Below, in pieces: positions 11,558 to 24,418 of a DNA stretch of 27,353 bases. The DNA is from Candidatus Micrarchaeota archaeon (GTDB lineage Archaea; Micrarchaeota; Micrarchaeia; Norongarragalinales; Norongarragalinaceae). The translations under genes were made by a program, and so were the position numbers. The notes beneath the pieces were generated by a model that had not been told where the DNA came from, did no database searches, and saw only the letters and a program-made list of their open reading frames with translations. The DNA is taken from the NCBI GenBank assembly GCA_037444485.1, contig JBBIMI010000012.1:1-27353 (forward strand), given 5' to 3'. Positions within the stretch are counted from its first letter, which is position 1, and the number at the start of each line of letters is the position of its first letter.

Positions 11558-11605
11558 AAGCTTTTCTTTAAGAAAGAAAACCTTGAAAAGGAAAAGCGCG
11601 CCGAA
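11558..11605 (+). other. tRNA-Glu D-loop intron, 48 nt (about 20b/21), carrying the shared motif
   Basis: Central helix CGGT/GCCG, bulges CA|A and AA|A. The intron begins AAGCTTTTC. Confidence 0.85.
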
Positions 11606-11622: not shown

Positions 11623-11736
11623 ACAAGCTTTTCTTGGAAAGAAAGAAAACCTTGAAAAAAAGAAAAAAGTTTTGAAAAAAGAAAAAAGTTTTTCTTTTGA
11701 AAGAAAAAGAACATAAAATCTTGAAAAAACAGGGAA
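11623..11736 (+). other. tRNA-Glu anticodon-loop intron, 114 nt (37/38), carrying the shared motif
   Basis: Central helix CTCT/AGGG, bulges CA|A and AA|A. Confidence 0.88.
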
Positions 11737-13782: not shown

Positions 13783-13829
13783 TTAGGCGGCTTTTCTTTG
13801 CTAGGGTTTTCTTCATTAAAGAAAAACCT
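13783..13829 (-). other. 23S intron ~2754/2755, 47 nt, shared-motif variant
   Basis: BHB AGGC/GCCT, bulges AT|A and AA|C. Splicing restores GAAGGCATCTAAG. Confidence 0.9.
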
Positions 13830-14105: not shown

Positions 14106-14771
14106 CTAGGAGATGCCACCGAACTGTCTCGCGACGTTCTGATTCTGGGACGCACAGGGCTGTAAAATATTCTTCAATTTTTGGGCTTTTTCGGGATGAG
14201 CAAAGCCGATTTTTTCCATGAACAAAATGACTGATTTTCTTTCTCGTATTATGACTAAAAACTGTTGCTTTTTAGCACTGTAAAAAAACTTGGCTTTTAT
14301 TTCCATAGCGTTCAAAAAATTGTAAATCCACTCTGAAATACTCTTGTTCTTCACCCACAACATTATTTCTGGCGTGAAGTAAGCCTTGCCATTTTCTATG
14401 TGCACATCTCTGCTTACGCTGCCTTCGCCTGCAAACCACCCGCGAATATAATCAATCTGATCAGCTTCATCAAGATTAGAAGGCGGAATTATTGTTTCAG
14501 CCTTCTTGCCGACCGGAATCGCATATTCTTTTGTTAGTTTCTGAGAAATTGCTTTGTCATATACATAAACGACGTACTTTGTCTTGTTACTGAATCCGGT
14601 TTTGCTTAAGTAAACAGATGGCTTTTTCGAAGTCACTTGCTCCAGCAAAGGAATCACTATTTCATCGACGAAACGTTTGCTGGAATTTATTACTTTTATT
14701 CCGCAACCATCCCGCTCTAAGTGACCGTCACTTGCAACAATGCCTGCAACGAGACTTATTGCCTTGCTCAC
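14106..14771 (-). CDS. Two-motif LAGLIDADG homing endonuclease
   Basis: LVAGIVASDG and YIRGWFAGEGS motifs, C-terminal IGFAHPEK. The linear ORF runs 37 nt into the exon. Confidence 0.9.
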   Translation of the reverse strand: MSKAISLVAGIVASDGHLERDGCGIKVINSSKRFVDEIVIPLLEQVTSKKPSVYLSKTGFSNKTKYVVYVYDKAISQKLTKEYAIPVGKKAETIIPPSNLDEADQIDYIRGWFAGEGSVSRDVHIENGKAYFTPEIMLWVKNKSISEWIYNFLNAMEIKAKFFYSAKKQQFLVIIRERKSVILFMEKIGFAHPEKAQKLKNILQPCASQNQNVARQFGGIS

Positions 14772-15294: not shown

Positions 15295-15435
15295 TCTAAC
15301 CAGCTTTTTCTTTCAAAAAATTTCTTTTTCAATGTTTTCCTTTTTCTTTCTTTTCCAAGGTTTTTTCTTTTCCCAAAAGAAAAAAAGCTTCTTTCTTTTC
15401 CAAGGTTTTCTTTCTTTCCAAGAAAGAAAAGCTTT
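15295..15435 (-). other. 23S intron ~2360, 141 nt, with two tandem copies of the shared motif
   Basis: BHB TAAC/GTTA, bulges AA|A and GA|T, outer helix GACCC/GGGTC. Motif units at 15391-15434 and 15346-15390. Confidence 0.85.
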
Positions 15436-15510: not shown

Positions 15511-16429
15511 ATGTCCAGTTTAAAAGCTTTCAAAAAAAAAATTTAATGTCCTCTAGATTCGTGAAAACAATCGCGGGCAAACCAATAAAGTAATGCTTCA
15601 GGTTCGGGTAAGTGTAAACCAAAATGCGGTAACCTGCACTAGAAAAAACCGTTATTTTTTCTTTCATGCGTTTCACATGCGGCTTCCAATCAAAACCAAA
15701 AACTTCGATTACTAAACGCTTCGAAGGCAAGAAAAAGTCAGGGTAAAAACCCAGCAACTCACGCTCGTACTCGAAAACGCAAACCAAGCCGCGACAACAA
15801 TTTCGCCACTTCCAACTCTTTGAAGCTGCGAAACTTTTCACCGCGAAAAACAATCTTGCTCTTGAAAGAGCGGCGGAACGCTTTCCTGCGTTGGCGCGCC
15901 ATTTTTTCAGGCGGACAGCTTTGAATTGATTTTCTGCCGCCCAGTTTTCCTAAAATATGGTAGCAATTCGCGCCGAATTTTTTCTTCAAAGCCGACTTGA
16001 TTGAATTACGCCATTTTTCGCGAAGTGTCTTGTCGCGCATCAAACGCTTTTTAAGTGTTTTCATGCCGCGCTGCCCAAGTTTTTTACTCCACTCGCTTCC
16101 AAACTTTTTTTTCAAAGCCGAAACGCCTTTCTCGCTTGCGTGCCGTAAAAACGACCGCAAGTCGAAAGTCAAGTAACACCCCGCTTTCAAGGGAATACTG
16201 AATTCGTCAGACCATTTTTCGAGTAGCGAAAAAGGAACCGAGCGTTTTGCTCGAACCCAGAGTTTGAGGCACTCGTAAGACACTCCGAGCTTCTTCGCCA
16301 GGTTGAACAGCGTTTCGCAGCCGGTTTTTTCCTGAAGGCGTTTAAAGAACGCTTTCGAACAATCGGCATTCTTGAATTTGGCTCGCTTTGACTCCACGAA
16401 ATCTAGAGGACTCCTAGGCTTTTAAACTT
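15511..16429 (-). mobile_element. 23S intron ~2287/2288, 919 nt, encoding a nuclease
   Basis: BHB GTCC/GGAC, bulges AA|A and AT|A, 11-bp inner helix. Splicing restores GCGTCCAAAGGTC. Confidence 0.9.
15530..16397 (-). pseudogene. Frameshifted HTH + PD-(D/E)XK-type endonuclease
   Basis: ORFs 15759..16397 and 15530..15853 join if one T is removed near 15775, giving LGLRFEYERELLGFYPDFFL...VIEVFG. N-terminal HTH LAKKLGVSYECLKLW. Confidence 0.75.
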
Positions 16430-16739: not shown

Positions 16740-17461
16740 TTCGGCAGAAAGCGCTTAACAAAAAATTAAAAGCTGCGCAAGTCTCTCTTCTTTCTCTCGT
16801 GCTTTAATGGCATACACTCATAAAACCGCAATAGGTTTTTCTTTCCCGTCAACGCGAGTTCGTCAGAATCATGCAATTGAGACTTTACGTCAATCTTATC
16901 GAGAACATTCTTAACGAACTCTAGCGGTTGTTGCCACCAGCATGTTTGCAGCGGAAAGACGCACAAGCTTGAATGGTCTTGGTTTTACCATTCGCGAATT
17001 TGGCTGCATTCCTGCAACCCCCTTCAGAATCGTAGAAGCCAGCAACGTACTCCAACTGCAAATTTGCAGTTTCAACCAGAGCTGGCGTACGCCAGTAAAG
17101 CTGGTCTCCTGGATTGTAAAAACAGGCTAGCAATTCATAAACTTTTTTTGAATAGAGTTTCAACTTGTAGCAATCACGCTTGCTTTTCTTGTCCTTCACC
17201 AAATACGTTTTGAACTTATGCTCTGGCAAGTCAAACTCGGATGCCGCCATTTTAGTCACGGTTCGTAACGTTCGTAACTATTCTACTCTCGGGTCGGTTG
17301 CAAGCGTCAGTTCTTTCTTTAAACCGCATTTGGGTAAAGAATCATTCGCAATGCGCCGAGCAAGTAGAATAAGTTTTTGGTTATCATGCTGCAAGCACGA
17401 AATGCCTGCTTAAAAACTTTAGGAGGGCTCAATGCCGGTAAATTGTTTGAAGCGCTTTCTT
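16740..17461 (-). mobile_element. 23S intron ~1963/1964, 722 nt, with a decayed homing endonuclease
   Basis: BHB CGGC/GCCG, bulges TT|A and AA|G, 11-bp inner helix. Splicing restores GGCGGCTTGCATG. Confidence 0.9.
16766..17387 (-). pseudogene. LAGLIDADG pseudogene
   Basis: MITKNLFYLLGALR, then a frameshift (~17345), an in-frame TAG (17280), a 9-bp duplication (17261-17278), YVAGFYDSEG and a second frameshift (~16930). Confidence 0.85.
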
Positions 17462-17696: not shown

Positions 17697-17877
17697 TTAC
17701 AGCCCCCTTCAAAGACGCGCAAAATGGTAATTTAGTCAGGCGCTATCAACCTCATCACTAAAAAAGAAGCTTTTTCTTTCAAAAAAATTTCTTTTCCAAG
17801 TTTTTCTTTTTTTCAAGAAAGAAAAGCTTGTTCAGAGGTTGTTCAAACGCTCATCACTCTTTGCCTTTGTCGGGAGT
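17697..17877 (-). other. 23S intron ~1758/1759, 181 nt, with the shared motif internal at 17767-17829
   Basis: BHB GCAG/CTGT, bulges TA|A and AA|A. Splicing restores GCAGTAACAAGG. Confidence 0.88.
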
Positions 17878-18361: not shown

Positions 18362-18470
18362 ATCGCCAGCTTTTCTCTTCATTCTTTCTTTTCCAAGGTT
18401 TTTTCTTTTCTTTAAAGAAAAAAGCTTCTTTCTTTTCCAAGGTTTTCTTTTTTTCAAGAAAGAAAAGCTT
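18362..18470 (-). other. 23S intron ~1328/1329, 109 nt, with two tandem copies of the shared motif
   Basis: BHB CGCT/GGCG, bulges AG|A and AT|T. Motif units at 18428-18470 and 18384-18427. Confidence 0.88.
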
Positions 18471-19143: not shown

Positions 19144-19408
19144 CTACCTCCCCGCTGTCTGAGAACCAAAACGCCTTATTGATTAACACTTAGCCATTTC
19201 TTAGGGGCCTTAACTGCAGTAGGGGTCGTTCCCCTCTCGGCAACCGCGCTTAACTCGGTTGCCCAACTCCTGTCTTCTCCAGCAGCGTTAGCTTCGGAGT
19301 TTGACTCAAGAATGAGGCCTTTCGGCCCCGCGTTCTCGAATCAGTGGCTCTACCTAACGCTTGCCTCTGACAAGGCTGTACTGCGGTACACTTCGAAGGA
19401 AACCCGCT

Positions 19409-19458
19409 ATAGCGAACTCGAGAAACTAAAAGAAACTAAAAATTAGTTTCACGAGTTT
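19409..19458 (-). other. 23S intron ~803/804, 50 nt
   Basis: BHB GGCG/CGCT, bulges AT|A and AT|A. Splicing restores GGCGATAGCGGG. Confidence 0.9.
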
Positions 19459-19509: not shown

Positions 19510-19571
19510 TTGTCCAGCATTCTTTTTTCCTTTTTCTTTCCCAAGGCTTTCTTTTTCTAAAAGAAAGGCTT
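19510..19571 (-). other. 23S intron ~750 (H35 loop), 62 nt, carrying the shared motif
   Basis: BHB GTCT/GGAC, bulges AT|A and AA|C. The intron begins AAGCCTTTC. Confidence 0.8.
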
Positions 19572-20623
19572 ATAGACTAGCATTGGTTGCGGGCTTCCAC
19601 CCTTCTGAAGAAGGGCTTCACCCTGCTCGCGTCTAGATCGCTTCGGCTTCGGGTCTTAAGAAAGTGACTGACCGCCGGTTAAGACGGCGCACCTCGCCTT
19701 CTTGCGAAGGTTGCGTGCTAATTCGCTTTCGCTTTGCTTGCGCACGCCACTTTCTTAAACTCCCTGGCTCTTGCTTCAAGAAGTACGACACCACGCTGTT
19801 TGAATCCGCTTGTTCAGCGGATTTACATTCCTTTCGCGCGAGTGTCTTATTGTAGCCACTCTGTTTCAAGCACTTTTAACCCCCCTTTCGGGGTGCTTTT
19901 CAGTTTTCGTTCGCACTACTTTTTACGCTATCGGTCTTGGATTCGTGTTTAGGGTTGCGAGTCAATGGCTCGCGTTTTCACGCTCCCAAGCAAGGGAACG
20001 CTACTCTGGATACCGCCACGCGCGTCGGCGCGTTTGTTTACAAGGCTTTCACTTTCTTCGGCCCGGCTTTCCAGCCGAGTTCAACTCCACGCAACGCGTT
20101 AAAAGACGGTCCAAACGCCACATTCGAACCCACCTTGCGGCAGGCCGTTCGGTTTGCCCTGCGCCGTTTTCGTTCGCACTACTAGCGGCATACCGGTTGG
20201 TTTCTTTTCCTCCGCTTACTAAGATATTTCAATTCAGCGGGTGTGCCCTCCTTCCGGAGTGATTCGGGAACCCGTGGTTCAAAGCCCGCGTGCGGCTACC
20301 CACGGCTTTTCGCAGCTTGCTACGCCCTTCATCGCCGTCCAAGCCTAACTATCCACAGAGTGGCAGCAGCATTACTACTCCTCGATTGAACACCTTTTTC
20401 CTACACAGCTTCACGAAACTCGGAAAACAACGGTAAAGCGATTTTCCAGTCTTTCAGCATTCCATTTCCGAACGCCCGATTGCGGCGGGACTTGCTTCGA
20501 AAACTTCATTTGAACGCCCGCGGAAAGCATTGCGCTCTCAACGCGAACAACAAAAATTTTCACTTTTTCTTTAGTTGAGTTTTCTTTTTTCCCGAAAAAG
20601 AAAAGTCAATGGACTCGGCGGGA

Positions 20624-20690: not shown

Positions 20691-20754
20691 TTTTTGGAAC
20701 GTGTATTCGCTTTCTTTTTAGTGAAGTTTTTTCTTTTTTAAAGAAAAAAGTTCT
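20691..20754 (-). other. tRNA-Ala 37/38 intron, 64 nt, shared-motif variant
   Basis: BHB TTTG/CAAA, bulges CA|A and AA|A, inner helix GAAC/GTTC. Confidence 0.9.
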
Positions 20755-20914: not shown

Positions 20915-21729
20915 TTATCGAGCGGTTGAGATGGTATAAAAATTTAGATCCTATTTTGACTCGCTTCAATAAGCCTTGCGCATATAAAGCATTTATGCTC
21001 TTTCTCACGCGATAGTAAGGCATATTTAATGCCTGCATCACGTTCGAAATATCGGTTGGTGTCTCTAACAATTCTAGAAAAGCCGATTTATCCATCATCT
21101 TAGCATGCTCCTTTATTATTACAAGAATCTCGGCTTTCTTTTTTTGGTTTCGTCCGTGAAGCCAATTAATTCCAAAAATTTTTTGACATTTTTTACATAG
21201 AAGTAACAATCAGACTTCTTCGCATCCTTCTTGAGTTTGGGCGTTGTGCAGGAAATTCCTTTTTTAGTAAGGTATTGAAACAAACTTTTTACTAATTTGA
21301 TTTTATGCGGGTTGAAACCTGCTTGAATTCTATGTAACCTTTGGAATCGACCGATGCTTCCGCGTCAAACAAGCCCCTCGCAAAAGAGGGCGTTAAATGC
21401 GCTTTGCGGATTGTTCTAAAAAGTTTTTCTGCTAACTTCTTTAAAGCAACTCTAATCCTAATTTTTTCACTATTTGATTTCCAAGGACTAGCGTCTCTTT
21501 TCAGTCTAACATTTGAAGTTGGCAGGCGCAATGCATTCGCCCACGCTTCTATCGACGCTGGATTTTTTCCATAGATGTCCGCCTTAATTCTTTGTATAGG
21601 AACATGAATTTTGATGGAGGCGATTGCTTCTCTAAGAATTGACTGCGACGTATTGTGAATTTCCGTATGTCGGTCATCCAAATAACCATCGCCTGAAACC
21701 AAACCGGCAAGCCAGTCAAAGCAATTCAT
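20915..21729 (-). pseudogene. LAGLIDADG endonuclease plus wHTH-like segment spread over three reading frames
   Basis: WLAGLVSGDG and FARGLFDAEAS lie in frame 1. The continuation HKIKLVK...KFLELIGF is in a second frame from ~21310 to a stop at 21119. A wHTH-like segment (21098-20915) is in the third frame. Confidence 0.75.
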
Positions 21730-21740
21730 CTCAATCACTT
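20915..21740 (-). mobile_element. 16S intron 1499/1500, 826 nt, encoding a homing endonuclease
   Basis: BHB GTCG/CGAT, bulges TA|A and AA|A. Splicing restores AGTCGTAACAAGG. Confidence 0.92.
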
Positions 21741-21747
21741 TACGACT

Positions 21748-21795
21748 ATAGACCCCCACGACATTAAGTGTTAAAAATATATAATGTTGTGGAGT
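21748..21795 (-). other. 16S intron 1492/1493 (decoding site), 48 nt
   Basis: Weak central helix GGGT/GTCT, bulges TA|A and AT|A, long inner hairpin. Splicing restores GGTTAAGTCG. Confidence 0.85.
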
Positions 21796-22360: not shown

Positions 22361-23013
22361 TTCAGGGAAGAGCTGCAGCGAGTTTAAAAAGTCTCCTGCG
22401 TTTTTCATGAAACGAGTGAATTCTATAAGCAAAATCTTTAAGTTGATTTCGTCGTGTTATTCTAAACTGCCAGACTTTGCCGGTCATCGTTAAATTCGTT
22501 GGCCGAAAATTTTGGCTTACTAGAAAATCACGTACGAACTCTAAAGAACTGCGCGATTTTTGATTGAAGGAAACATATTTCTGTGGACTGTAGTCGTAAG
22601 GAACACCACCTTCAGCATCCCAGAAACCGCTTATGTACCACCACTTCTCTTCTTCGCTGGCATTTGCCACGATGGTTGGCGTATTCCATAAGTCCTGAGG
22701 GCACTTGTATTCCGAAATTGAAATCAATTTCTCCACAAACCAGCGCTTATTAACGCGCAATAGATTTTTGGAAATTTTAGCTTCGACACCAAAATTTTTT
22801 GAAATAATTTCGGAAATAAAGTGAAGCCACTGTGCGTCCTTCTGGTACATGCGAAGTTCATAGTTTTTCCCTTCGCGAGCGTCAAAATTCCCGTCTCGCA
22901 AGGCACCAAGCAAGTAATAAATTTCAGGATTCATGTTATAGAAAACTGAAAAATGAGTTTTTATTCTTGTCTGGACCACCCTGCCAGTGAAAACGCTTTC
23001 TGCAGCATCTTCT
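22361..23013 (-). mobile_element. 16S intron 919, 653 nt, encoding a homing endonuclease
   Basis: Relaxed BHB AAGG/CCTG, inner GAAGA..GCTGCAG/CTGCAGC.TCTTC. Splicing restores AAAGGAATTGGCGG. Confidence 0.9.
22362..22934 (-). CDS. Two-motif LAGLIDADG homing endonuclease
   Basis: YYLLGALRDG and YISGFWDAEGG motifs. Start is ATG 22934 or the upstream GTG 22979. Confidence 0.9.
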   Translation of the reverse strand: MNPEIYYLLGALRDGNFDAREGKNYELRMYQKDAQWLHFISEIISKNFGVEAKISKNLLRVNKRWFVEKLISISEYKCPQDLWNTPTIVANASEEEKWWYISGFWDAEGGVPYDYSPQKYVSFNQKSRSSLEFVRDFLVSQNFRPTNLTMTGKVWQFRITRRNQLKDFAYRIHSFHEKRRRLFKLAAALP

Positions 23014-23024
23014 TTCCTTTAAGT

Positions 23025-23612
23025 TTACTGTAGAAGAAGCCCTATAGAAAAAACTTTATCAGGGTGTTCGAACGGCACTAAACTATAAAACTTTTTGAAA
23101 TTTTCTTTTGACGTTATAAAGAACCTGTTAGTCCCAGATTTTTTATCTGCAATAAAAATATTGCTTGATTTTATGCCATTTTTATTTAGCCAATTTTTTA
23201 TGAATCTAAGCGATTCAAAATTTTTCTGACTAAAACCAACAACATAATTTTTGGTGCTACAATCACCCTCAGCATCGAAAAAACCAGCCACGTAATTTGA
23301 GATAACTTCTTGTGAAGCTTTTTTGATTATGCGTGGCGTATTCCATTTTTCTTGCGGCGCTATAAACTCATAATCGTTTACAAAGAGATTGTAAACTTTT
23401 TGAGAACTGAGGATCACTCGGTAATAATTTTCTTTGTATTCTTCTAGTCTTGGTTCTTTTTTGAATAGCTTGAATATTCTTTTTGCTATAGAATTTGAAA
23501 GCCATTCAGTATTGTTTTCATACCAAATACTGTTGTAGTTTCTGCTATTCTTGTCGTAGAACACGCTTCCGTCCCTCAGAGCGCCAACAAGATACGCTAA
23601 GTCTTTCTGCAT
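23025..23612 (-). CDS. Two-motif LAGLIDADG homing endonuclease
   Basis: YLVGALRDG and YVAGFFDAEG motifs. The TAA stop forms the last three bases of the intron. Confidence 0.92.
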   Translation of the reverse strand: MQKDLAYLVGALRDGSVFYDKNSRNYNSIWYENNTEWLSNSIAKRIFKLFKKEPRLEEYKENYYRVILSSQKVYNLFVNDYEFIAPQEKWNTPRIIKKASQEVISNYVAGFFDAEGDCSTKNYVVGFSQKNFESLRFIKNWLNKNGIKSSNIFIADKKSGTNRFFITSKENFKKFYSLVPFEHPDKVFSIGLLLQ

Positions 23613-23929: not shown

Positions 23930-23973
23930 CTCGGCGTTTTTTCTTTCTTGATTTTCTTTTGAAAGAAAAATCT
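23930..23973 (-). other. 16S intron ~694/695, 44 nt, shared-motif variant
   Basis: BHB TGGT/GCCG, bulges AA|A and AG|A. Splicing restores GTGGTAAAATGC. Confidence 0.85.
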
Positions 23974-24323: not shown

Positions 24324-24418
24324 CTCGGGAGCCTTTCTTTCACTTTTTTTCAAGTTTTCAAAAAAGAAAAAAAAACTTTTTTCCAAGGTTTTCTTTCTTT
24401 TCCAAGAAAGAAAAGCTT
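24324..24418 (-). other. 16S intron ~301/302, 95 nt, carrying the shared motif
   Basis: BHB TGGG/CCCG, bulges AG|A and AG|T. The intron begins AAGCTTTTC. Confidence 0.88.

Follow-up and report, generated by a model that had tools for sequence, protein, structure and literature searches.

A putative intrastrand-triplex repeat, dispersed in archaeal introns and possibly mobile

The focal 23S rRNA intron and related copies in the genome

The 27,353 nucleotides analysed, together called the window, make up contig C12 of an archaeal genome (G000) that measures 962 kb and is 95% complete. It holds a minus-strand rRNA operon interrupted by many introns, several of which contain LAGLIDADG genes. At least five LAGLIDADG-like intron ORFs lie in this one operon (23025-23612, 22362-22979, 14106-14771, 21292-21759 and 16921-17259), three of them Pfam-confirmed and two apparently frameshifted. 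A further 23S intron (15530-16397, minus strand) contains a long ORF in two frames; its C-terminal part resembles, by eye, a Vsr/DUF559-type nuclease, and neither piece matches Pfam.

The focal feature (19571-19510, minus strand) is a predicted 62-nt bulge-helix-bulge (BHB) intron of the 23S rRNA gene, which we take to lie in the helix-35 region. Several BHB candidates were obtained for the site. The chosen one, cutting at 19572/19571 and 19510/19509, has an outer helix of 2 bp, a central helix of 4 bp (19577-19574 / 19515-19512) and an inner helix of 3 bp. Since these cuts coincide with an exact 62-nt alignment gap in two relatives (G026 and G046), the stretch is regarded as an optional BHB intron; the coordinates of matches imply an identical gap in a third relative, G005. 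The predicted intron shows the 4-bp central helix and the 3-nt bulges of archaeal BHB introns, and its removal would restore the host gene. Among the read sets searched, the focal stretch was found in one DNA run only, probably its source. The contigs of two RNA runs, which come from relatives whose genes may be without the focal intron, end at 19572 and resume past a second intron, a pattern which does not in itself demonstrate splicing, and the DNA contig of one relative has 63 gaps across a stretch including the focal site. Another 50-nt 23S insert (19408-19457, minus strand), missing from a relative's DNA contig, is devoid of the triplex motif.

The intron begins 2 nt before the G preceding a pyrimidine tract, and contains three tracts, all read on the minus strand. 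Y (CTTTCTTTT, 9 nt, 19559-19567) follows G19569-C19568 and is paired, in the predicted RNA fold, with its Watson-Crick partner R1 (AAAAGAAAG, 19547-19555) across a loop of 3 nt. The linker CCTTGG (19541-19546), able to form a CC/GG mini-stem, is followed by R2 (GAAAGAAAA, 19532-19540), a mirror of R1 which would give nine triads. All tracts fall where the original prediction had placed them, and the mirror even extends to 11 nt (19530-19540). An A-rich tail runs from R2 to 19519. Class II intrastrand triplex (ITxF) motifs are described as having stems of 6-15 nt and loops of 1-6 nt (Holder et al. 2015, PMC4666352); the focal copy, with a stem of 9 and loops of 3 and 6, falls within these ranges. 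In relatives the linker often measures 7-8 nt, beyond the ITxF limit and within the 0-10 nt of Hoyne et al. (2000, cited in PMC4666352).

About 33 loci of the repeat, classified by eye, are present in this genome: 16 tRNA introns (in the D arm, anticodon arm or T loop), 1 tRNA trailer, 7 rRNA introns, 8-9 sites located 0-9 nt past a stop codon, and 1 site within rtcB. All share the sense of the host or upstream gene. Several are tandem arrays with units of 39-44 nt, and many upstream units stop just past the linker. The genome contains 17 perfect elements of at least 9 triads, whereas its reversed sequence has 1 and five block shuffles have none, so that chance does not account for them. The other gene-adjacent copies were considered as possible mRNA introns and rejected, as they lie past stop codons and, among the candidates listed, a convincing BHB was found in rtcB only.

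Along the window's minus strand, a 16S rRNA intron (24325-24417, a BHB candidate without outer helix) carries an element with a truncated R2, and a second 16S copy (23935-23970) is imperfect. Imperfection had been noted both for the 16S copy and for the second units of tandem arrays. The tRNA-Ala gene contains a 64-nt anticodon-loop BHB intron (20691-20754) with an element at 20751-20710 (linker CTTCAC). Another copy (20563-20606, linker CTCAAC), formerly assigned to a spacer, has the sequence described; its location needs correction, as it starts 3 nt past the tRNA-Ala 3' end, and is thus a tRNA trailer. The first R2 position is a T in both copies, and the mirror register is intact. In the 23S gene, copies are found in an intron with two tandem units (18362-18470, units at 18468-18382, boundaries uncertain by 2 nt); at 17788-17827, inside an intron, where the copy separates box D' from box C' in a C/D-box-like sequence; in an intron of about 141 nt (15295-15435), which includes the unit first taken as consensus (15391-15434), a second unit and a degenerate purine tail; and, as a diverged in-register copy, in a 47-nt BHB intron (13783-13829). 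Both the consensus unit and the tRNA-Ala intron copy read as described. On the plus strand, a tRNA-Glu gene is interrupted by a D-arm intron (11558-11605), with a copy in host-RNA sense, and by an anticodon-arm intron (11623-11736), with a copy and a purine tail. The C/D-box-like sequence (17856-17736, minus strand) has C, D', C' and D boxes, and a search for its guide targets gave no match over 9 nt. Elsewhere in the genome, the ends of contigs C2 and C5 (positions 1-400 in each) have a near-identical stretch in common, with a ribosomal protein gene and a degenerate element, probably because of an assembly overlap.

Three-way covariation and the favoured folding strand

A pattern without fixed G positions was matched in 28 of the 68 genomes of the order. 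A looser pattern was matched in 86 of 401 genomes of the phylum, where low counts are partly due to chance and three large families are almost empty. Loci sampled from 27 match-rich genomes (some matches being left out) were pooled with those of G000 and of the order-wide scan. The resulting covariation set spans 36 genomes in 15 families and contains 234 elements, 194 of which have a perfect 8-nt mirror. After collapsing to unique types, 173 of 213 (81%) are perfect mirrors, compared to 27% after permutation of R2, a level reached in none of 500 permutations. Taking one element per family and pattern, the figures are 80% and 20%; taking one copy per R1 pattern, 23 of 30 are mirrored, compared to 12% (0 of 2000 permutations). 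Although kin are not independent, the 30 distinct R1 patterns indicate that the mirrors do not derive from a few events. Within families, mirror covariation is significant in 8 of the 9 tested (at most 4 of 500 permutations); the ninth, f10, gave 4 of 500. In G000 alone (22 unique units) the covariation is not significant, the observed level being reached in 450 of 2000 permutations. Y, R1 and R2 thus covary three ways, and this becomes decisive only when relatives are added: the excess foreseen in the original prediction is large over the full set and not significant in the genome from which it was proposed.

The sequences flanking the stem are also constrained. Of 230 elements, 175 have the junction triad Y=C, R1=C, R2=G just outside it, and 8 carry a T in R2 at the loop-proximal triad. 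Where a perfect mirror is flanked by two Cs, the linker is 8 nt long in 80 of 86 cases; where it is flanked by one C, the linker measures 6 nt (55), 7 nt (14) or 8 nt (33). Linker length thus tracks the count of flank Cs, so that these two features covary as well.

One alternative is that no triplex is formed, and that R2 arose by slippage as a duplicate of R1 or competes with it for Watson-Crick pairing to Y, mirrors being produced by low complexity and common ancestry. The result for G000 alone is in its favour, as are the A-runs, which yield the 27% of perfect mirrors seen on permutation, and the rtcB copy, which has symmetric tracts and whose top-scoring stem pairs Y with R2. A mirror nevertheless fits R2 better than a direct repeat in 158 of the 234 elements, worse in 12 and equally in 64, and the 30 R1 patterns are mirrored far above permutation; we know of no copying process that makes mirror repeats. 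This explanation is therefore largely refuted and very improbable, and R2 does not behave merely as an alternative partner of Y. Selection on a triple helix, claimed at first for about 9 triads, is very probable on the covariation data, at about 9-11 triads.

The strand on which such a helix would form is a separate question. In a purine triplex on the sense strand, the central strand is R1; in a pyrimidine triplex on the antisense strand, it is the complement of Y. Sequences deviating in a single triad (28 unique, those within two positions of an end being dropped) have R1 as the odd strand in 15 cases, R2 in 11 and Y in 2. This departs from the 1/3 expectation with a p-value of about 0.001, the deviants not being independent; numbers are low, and tandem or degenerate copies of G000 contribute 4 of the R2 cases. 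The spectrum points to Y or its complement as the hub, and not to R1, as a sense purine triplex needs.

A second indication comes from composition. GG steps occur once in R1, compared to 28 expected, over 93 unique tracts, while in other purine runs the ratio of observed to expected is 0.84-0.99. Consecutive C-G-C triples destabilise pyrimidine triple helices (PMC7583470); the accessible text of PMC2532714 holds nothing on neighbouring C+ triads. The argument is weakened by a control, as Y/R hairpins without mirror, which are possibly decayed family members, avoid inner GG too (1 observed, 7.6 expected). According to Holder et al., purine-motif triplexes cannot form in RNA (PMC4666352), a point called contested in a review that presents findings on both sides (PMC7583470). 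Hairpin-loop sequences separate neither RNA from DNA nor sense from antisense.

The mutability of Y, the lowest of the three tracts, and the avoidance of GG steps favour an antisense pyrimidine motif over an RNA purine triplex, and that this motif is the working fold is somewhat more probable than not. Only the antisense half of the two-strand triplex originally proposed is favoured, the sense-RNA purine motif not being so. In this fold, the complement of Y would occupy the centre as purine strand and be Watson-Crick paired with the complement of R1; the complement of R2 would add a parallel Hoogsteen strand, giving T-A.T triads with isolated C+ triads, and the fold would terminate at the G-C flank.

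Insertion, host range and candidate enzymes

Members of the family begin at a constant point just before Y and differ in their A-rich tails. Of 48 tRNA introns with a strong BHB, 41 have their 5' splice site 1-4 nt ahead of the anchor purine; the tails range from -3 to 233 nt, being 0 nt or less in 3. A stretch of 12-67 nt from just upstream recurs after the tail in 24 of 485 elements (about 5%; at least 12 nt, ending 0-10 nt before Y). With shuffled partners the mean is 0.7 and the maximum 3; with the anchor moved 35 nt further upstream, 11 are still found. The 24 include 3 own-tail repeats of G000, 1 tandem and 3 cases from one site, leaving about 18 separate sites, and among the 485 elements none of the G000 host-gene sites is flanked by a duplication. 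The second duplicate often continues into an intact gene. Duplications are found beside tRNAs in both orientations, and at a gene start, and some antisense elements adjoin a duplicated tRNA 3' end. At three loci (L416, L448 and L496) an element lies near the start of a gene resembling, by eye, topoisomerase I, and a duplication of 44-67 nt restores the gene start.

Inside tRNAs, 79 elements are in sense and 2 in antisense orientation, out of 516 elements, 368 of which are without tRNA call. Inverted arrangements account for 15 of the 90 neighbouring pairs less than 150 nt apart. By eye, one tRNA D-arm intron (L126, G060:C31) holds two inverted elements, so that an antisense copy can persist there.

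A GTDB scan with one fixed tract pattern returned at least 121 stretches. As the pattern fixed the mirror, the scan informs on range and not on covariation. Among the matches listed are Micrarchaeota, Aenigmatarchaeota, Woesearchaeota, Iainarchaeum, Altiarchaeota and others, together with Clostridia, Saccharibacteria, Omnitrophota and Methylophilus, where the copies are intergenic by eye and sit where BHB splicing is absent. Two patterns gave 0 matches in viral contigs, and a phage collection queried with ribosomal protein S2 yielded nothing useful. At L270, L277, L312, L339 and related Clostridia loci, the triplex element is accompanied by a central hairpin and a second Y/R hairpin of opposite orientation; this composite repeat resembles inverted TMECO pairs.

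The fixed end on the Y side, the duplications, the antisense copies and the intergenic copies in bacteria together suggest an insertion by copy-in at the DNA level. Of the roles initially considered, a mobility signal fits better than an element stabilising intron RNA, because the motif is also found past stop codons, beside tRNAs in either orientation, and between bacterial genes. As archaeal terminators are U tracts, selection against transcripts with two such tracts could account for the sense bias in tRNAs. About half of the G000 loci are in tRNA introns, an enrichment for which a purely DNA-level mechanism does not account.

Candidate mobilising enzymes were also searched for. The RVT_1 profile, which divergent or viral enzymes may escape, matched 3 of 68 genomes, none of them with an element match in the order-wide scan. 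A Y1 transposase is encoded by 18 of 68 genomes, including G000 and G026, and was not found in G060, G037, G029, G046 and G045, which are incomplete. DUF559, found in 22 of 68 and in 1 of 5 genomes, does not track high-copy genomes: it is missing from nine (G000, G026, G060, G037, G029, G361, G392, G269 and G074), and 28 of 29 DUF559-type loci are without element. As none of the three co-occurs with copy number in these incomplete genomes, they were set aside as probable mobilisers. Clustering of neighbouring frames (668 ORFs from 341 loci, labelled by eye) gave no recurring non-housekeeping ORF beside A-rich elements apart from one integrase-like family at tRNA genes, the other clusters being housekeeping genes and spurious frames. 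In G020, an archaeon of the same taxonomic family (L385, G020:C25), a 142-aa DUF559 open frame is surrounded by three G-rich BoxC/TM-type elements.

Compared to established classes, MITE, REP and IS200-IS605 elements are marked by terminal inverted repeats and a fixed short duplication or none, whereas this element is one-sided, with variable duplications of 12-67 nt. Retro-elements that move by target-primed reverse transcription are expected to have a reverse transcriptase in their carriers, and RVT_1 is found in 3 of 68 genomes only.

Proposed mechanism, rival readings and known systems

The best explanation, on the sequence comparisons, is that the focal tract belongs to a mobile repeat of intrastrand-triplex type, short, non-coding and dispersed. 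We propose, with a probability of about 0.45, that single-stranded DNA adopts the triplex while being copied, and that the triplex determines the fixed end of what is copied. A polymerase would switch template onto an existing element, be released, or primed, at the point of triplex closure, and then go back to the target, at times re-copying 12-67 nt. Surviving copies would be those at harmless sites: introns removed by the splicing endonuclease and RtcB, positions beside a duplicated gene end, or tight gaps past stop codons, mostly oriented so that the host transcript is spared two U tracts. The wider proposal, of a mobile element some 45 nt long that encodes no protein, has its copying end set by a blunt antisense pyrimidine triplex, uses host polymerases and lands as a spliceable intron in tRNA, rRNA or mRNA, is tentative and on balance doubtful. 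If true, it would describe an archaeal intron generator, through which the orphan BoxC/PIT repeats of bacteria could be understood mechanistically.

Among the competing explanations, the structure could be a BoxC/TM-like DNA end, folding as a sense purine motif or on both strands, of a non-autonomous element, recognised by a nuclease or transposase acting in trans. The order Y-R1-R2 is that of TMECO, which forms a purine-motif triplex in vitro (PMC4666352), and the inverted pairs, the occasional T at the loop-proximal triad of R2 and the G020 DUF559 gene with three G-rich elements around it would all agree. Stems of the A-rich family have just 20% G, R1 is the most tolerant strand, and neither the distribution of DUF559, missing from nine genomes, nor the neighbouring ORFs, apart from the integrase-like family, indicate such a partner, so that we consider this rather unlikely. 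Alternatively, the sense Y, as nascent RNA or displaced DNA, might bind the R2 duplex, either DNA or an RNA-DNA hybrid, as its parallel Hoogsteen strand, the element working as a co-transcriptional switch or pause, with the Y-R1 hairpin as the alternative state. Such an arrangement also has Y as hub and a pyrimidine motif, fits the deviants equally well, accommodates the commonest junction triad, where Y matches R2 and not R1, and agrees with the sense orientation in tRNAs. It requires two to three adjacent C+ triads at the flank, however, and leaves the duplications unexplained; moreover, the Y-R1 hairpin would presumably form first, as R1 exits the polymerase. We regard it as unlikely.

A purine-motif triplex in sense RNA, either in the precursor or in the excised, circularised intron, could stabilise the RNA, mask the U tract from termination or bind a protein. 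The strong sense orientation and the position at 5' splice sites speak for it. Tails of at least 5 nt, present in 43 of the 48 strong-BHB tRNA introns, imply that a sense RNA fold could coexist with the BHB; they would usually suffice to span the helix (12 nt in the focal intron), and some linkers are of the UUCG type, C(UUCG)G. Evidence on both sides for purine-motif helices is reviewed in PMC7583470. A C to T change in Y would preserve both a wobble pair and the contact between R1 and R2, yet it is seen in 0 of the 28 deviants; the 3 introns with tails of 0 nt or less would clash with the BHB fold, and antisense copies and bacterial intergenic copies exist. RNA folds of the element have z-scores near 0, as calculated by a program unable to model triples. 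A sense RNA triplex appears, on the whole, slightly less likely still.

Copying set by an antisense triplex, the preferred reading, has partial parallels in several known systems. The element falls within the sequence definition of class II intrastrand triplexes, and its composition and location depart from those of TMECO/BoxC. With BoxC, PIT and TMECO repeats (ITxF class II; Holder et al. 2015, PMC4666352) it shares a layout in which Y, a loop, R1, a second loop and the mirror R2 follow one another and stems measure about 9 triads; like them it is dispersed in many copies, with a patchy distribution, occasional inverted pairs and no known mobiliser. BoxC/TMECO are G/C-rich, with 9-nt tracts and a second loop of 3 nt, whereas the archaeal element is A/T-rich, with a 6-8 nt CC/GG linker, a conserved C-C-G junction and target duplications. 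TMECO is described as always intergenic, without strand bias (PMC4666352); the archaeal element also resides in essential RNA genes, as sense-biased BHB introns, and its evidence points to the pyrimidine strand, unlike the purine-motif TMECO. Class II has a complementary pyrimidine class, and the main text of Holder et al. counts A/T-rich motifs in bulk, mentions neither tRNA nor introns, and identifies no mobiliser (PMC4666352). The ITxF database and the supplements of that paper may list A/T-rich motifs such as these.

Homopurine mirrors with a short central spacer, like R1/R2, are also typical of H-DNA, which needs no third tract, whereas here Y is the most constrained one. A MALAT1/ENE-type geometry fits the antisense strand only, where the genomically encoded A-rich tract, with matching G, comes last in order; in stability elements of that type, the A-rich tract at the 3' end of a transcript is clamped in a U-A.U triple helix. 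As in the blunt-ended RNA triple helix of MALAT1 and MEN-beta, two U-rich tracts with C interruptions are present there (PMC7583470). Differently from that helix, the element is antisense to the known transcript, mobile and multi-copy, with a tiny linker stem. Natural triple helices with three-way covariation are rare, and this family offers 30 naturally compensated patterns on oligonucleotides of 45 nt.

Asgard BHB introns (10.64898/2026.10.13.758758) are similar in having BHB ends, relaxed motifs and related introns in unrelated tRNAs. In the present case the shared sequence is a structured three-tract element that is not confined to introns and occurs also in rRNA, in an mRNA and in bacteria. 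That 2026 preprint mentions neither triplex nor mirror, and found no general route by which such introns arrive in Asgard archaea. The genome analysed here encodes a 395-aa open frame with two endonuclease-domain matches. The family thus links two questions, both bench-testable, i.e. the arrival of non-canonical archaeal tRNA and rRNA introns, and the function and spread of BoxC/PIT repeats. Rfam matched only rRNA and tRNA in the window, and in 12 bacterial loci all its matches were below the gathering score (one marginally) and were taken as chance. The literature covered, mostly outside subscription journals, yielded no description of archaeal introns encoding a triplex, nor of introns in rtcB.

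A BHB intron in an archaeal pre-mRNA is known from cbf5 of Crenarchaeota (PMC2738675), a different gene in a different phylum. In G000, rtcB is split by two BHB-type introns, the first at G000:C30:2998-3048 and the second 75 nt further (L261:399-561), and the three pieces match positions 1-24, 26-47 and 48-426 of the Pfam RtcB profile. The first intron, with a BHB inner helix of 8 bp, is the triplex element, and the second is a hairpin without mirror tract. As rtcB encodes the splicing ligase, the ligase mRNA would itself need the ligase. The repeat also disrupts gene calling in these archaea, where tRNAs are missed and rtcB is split.
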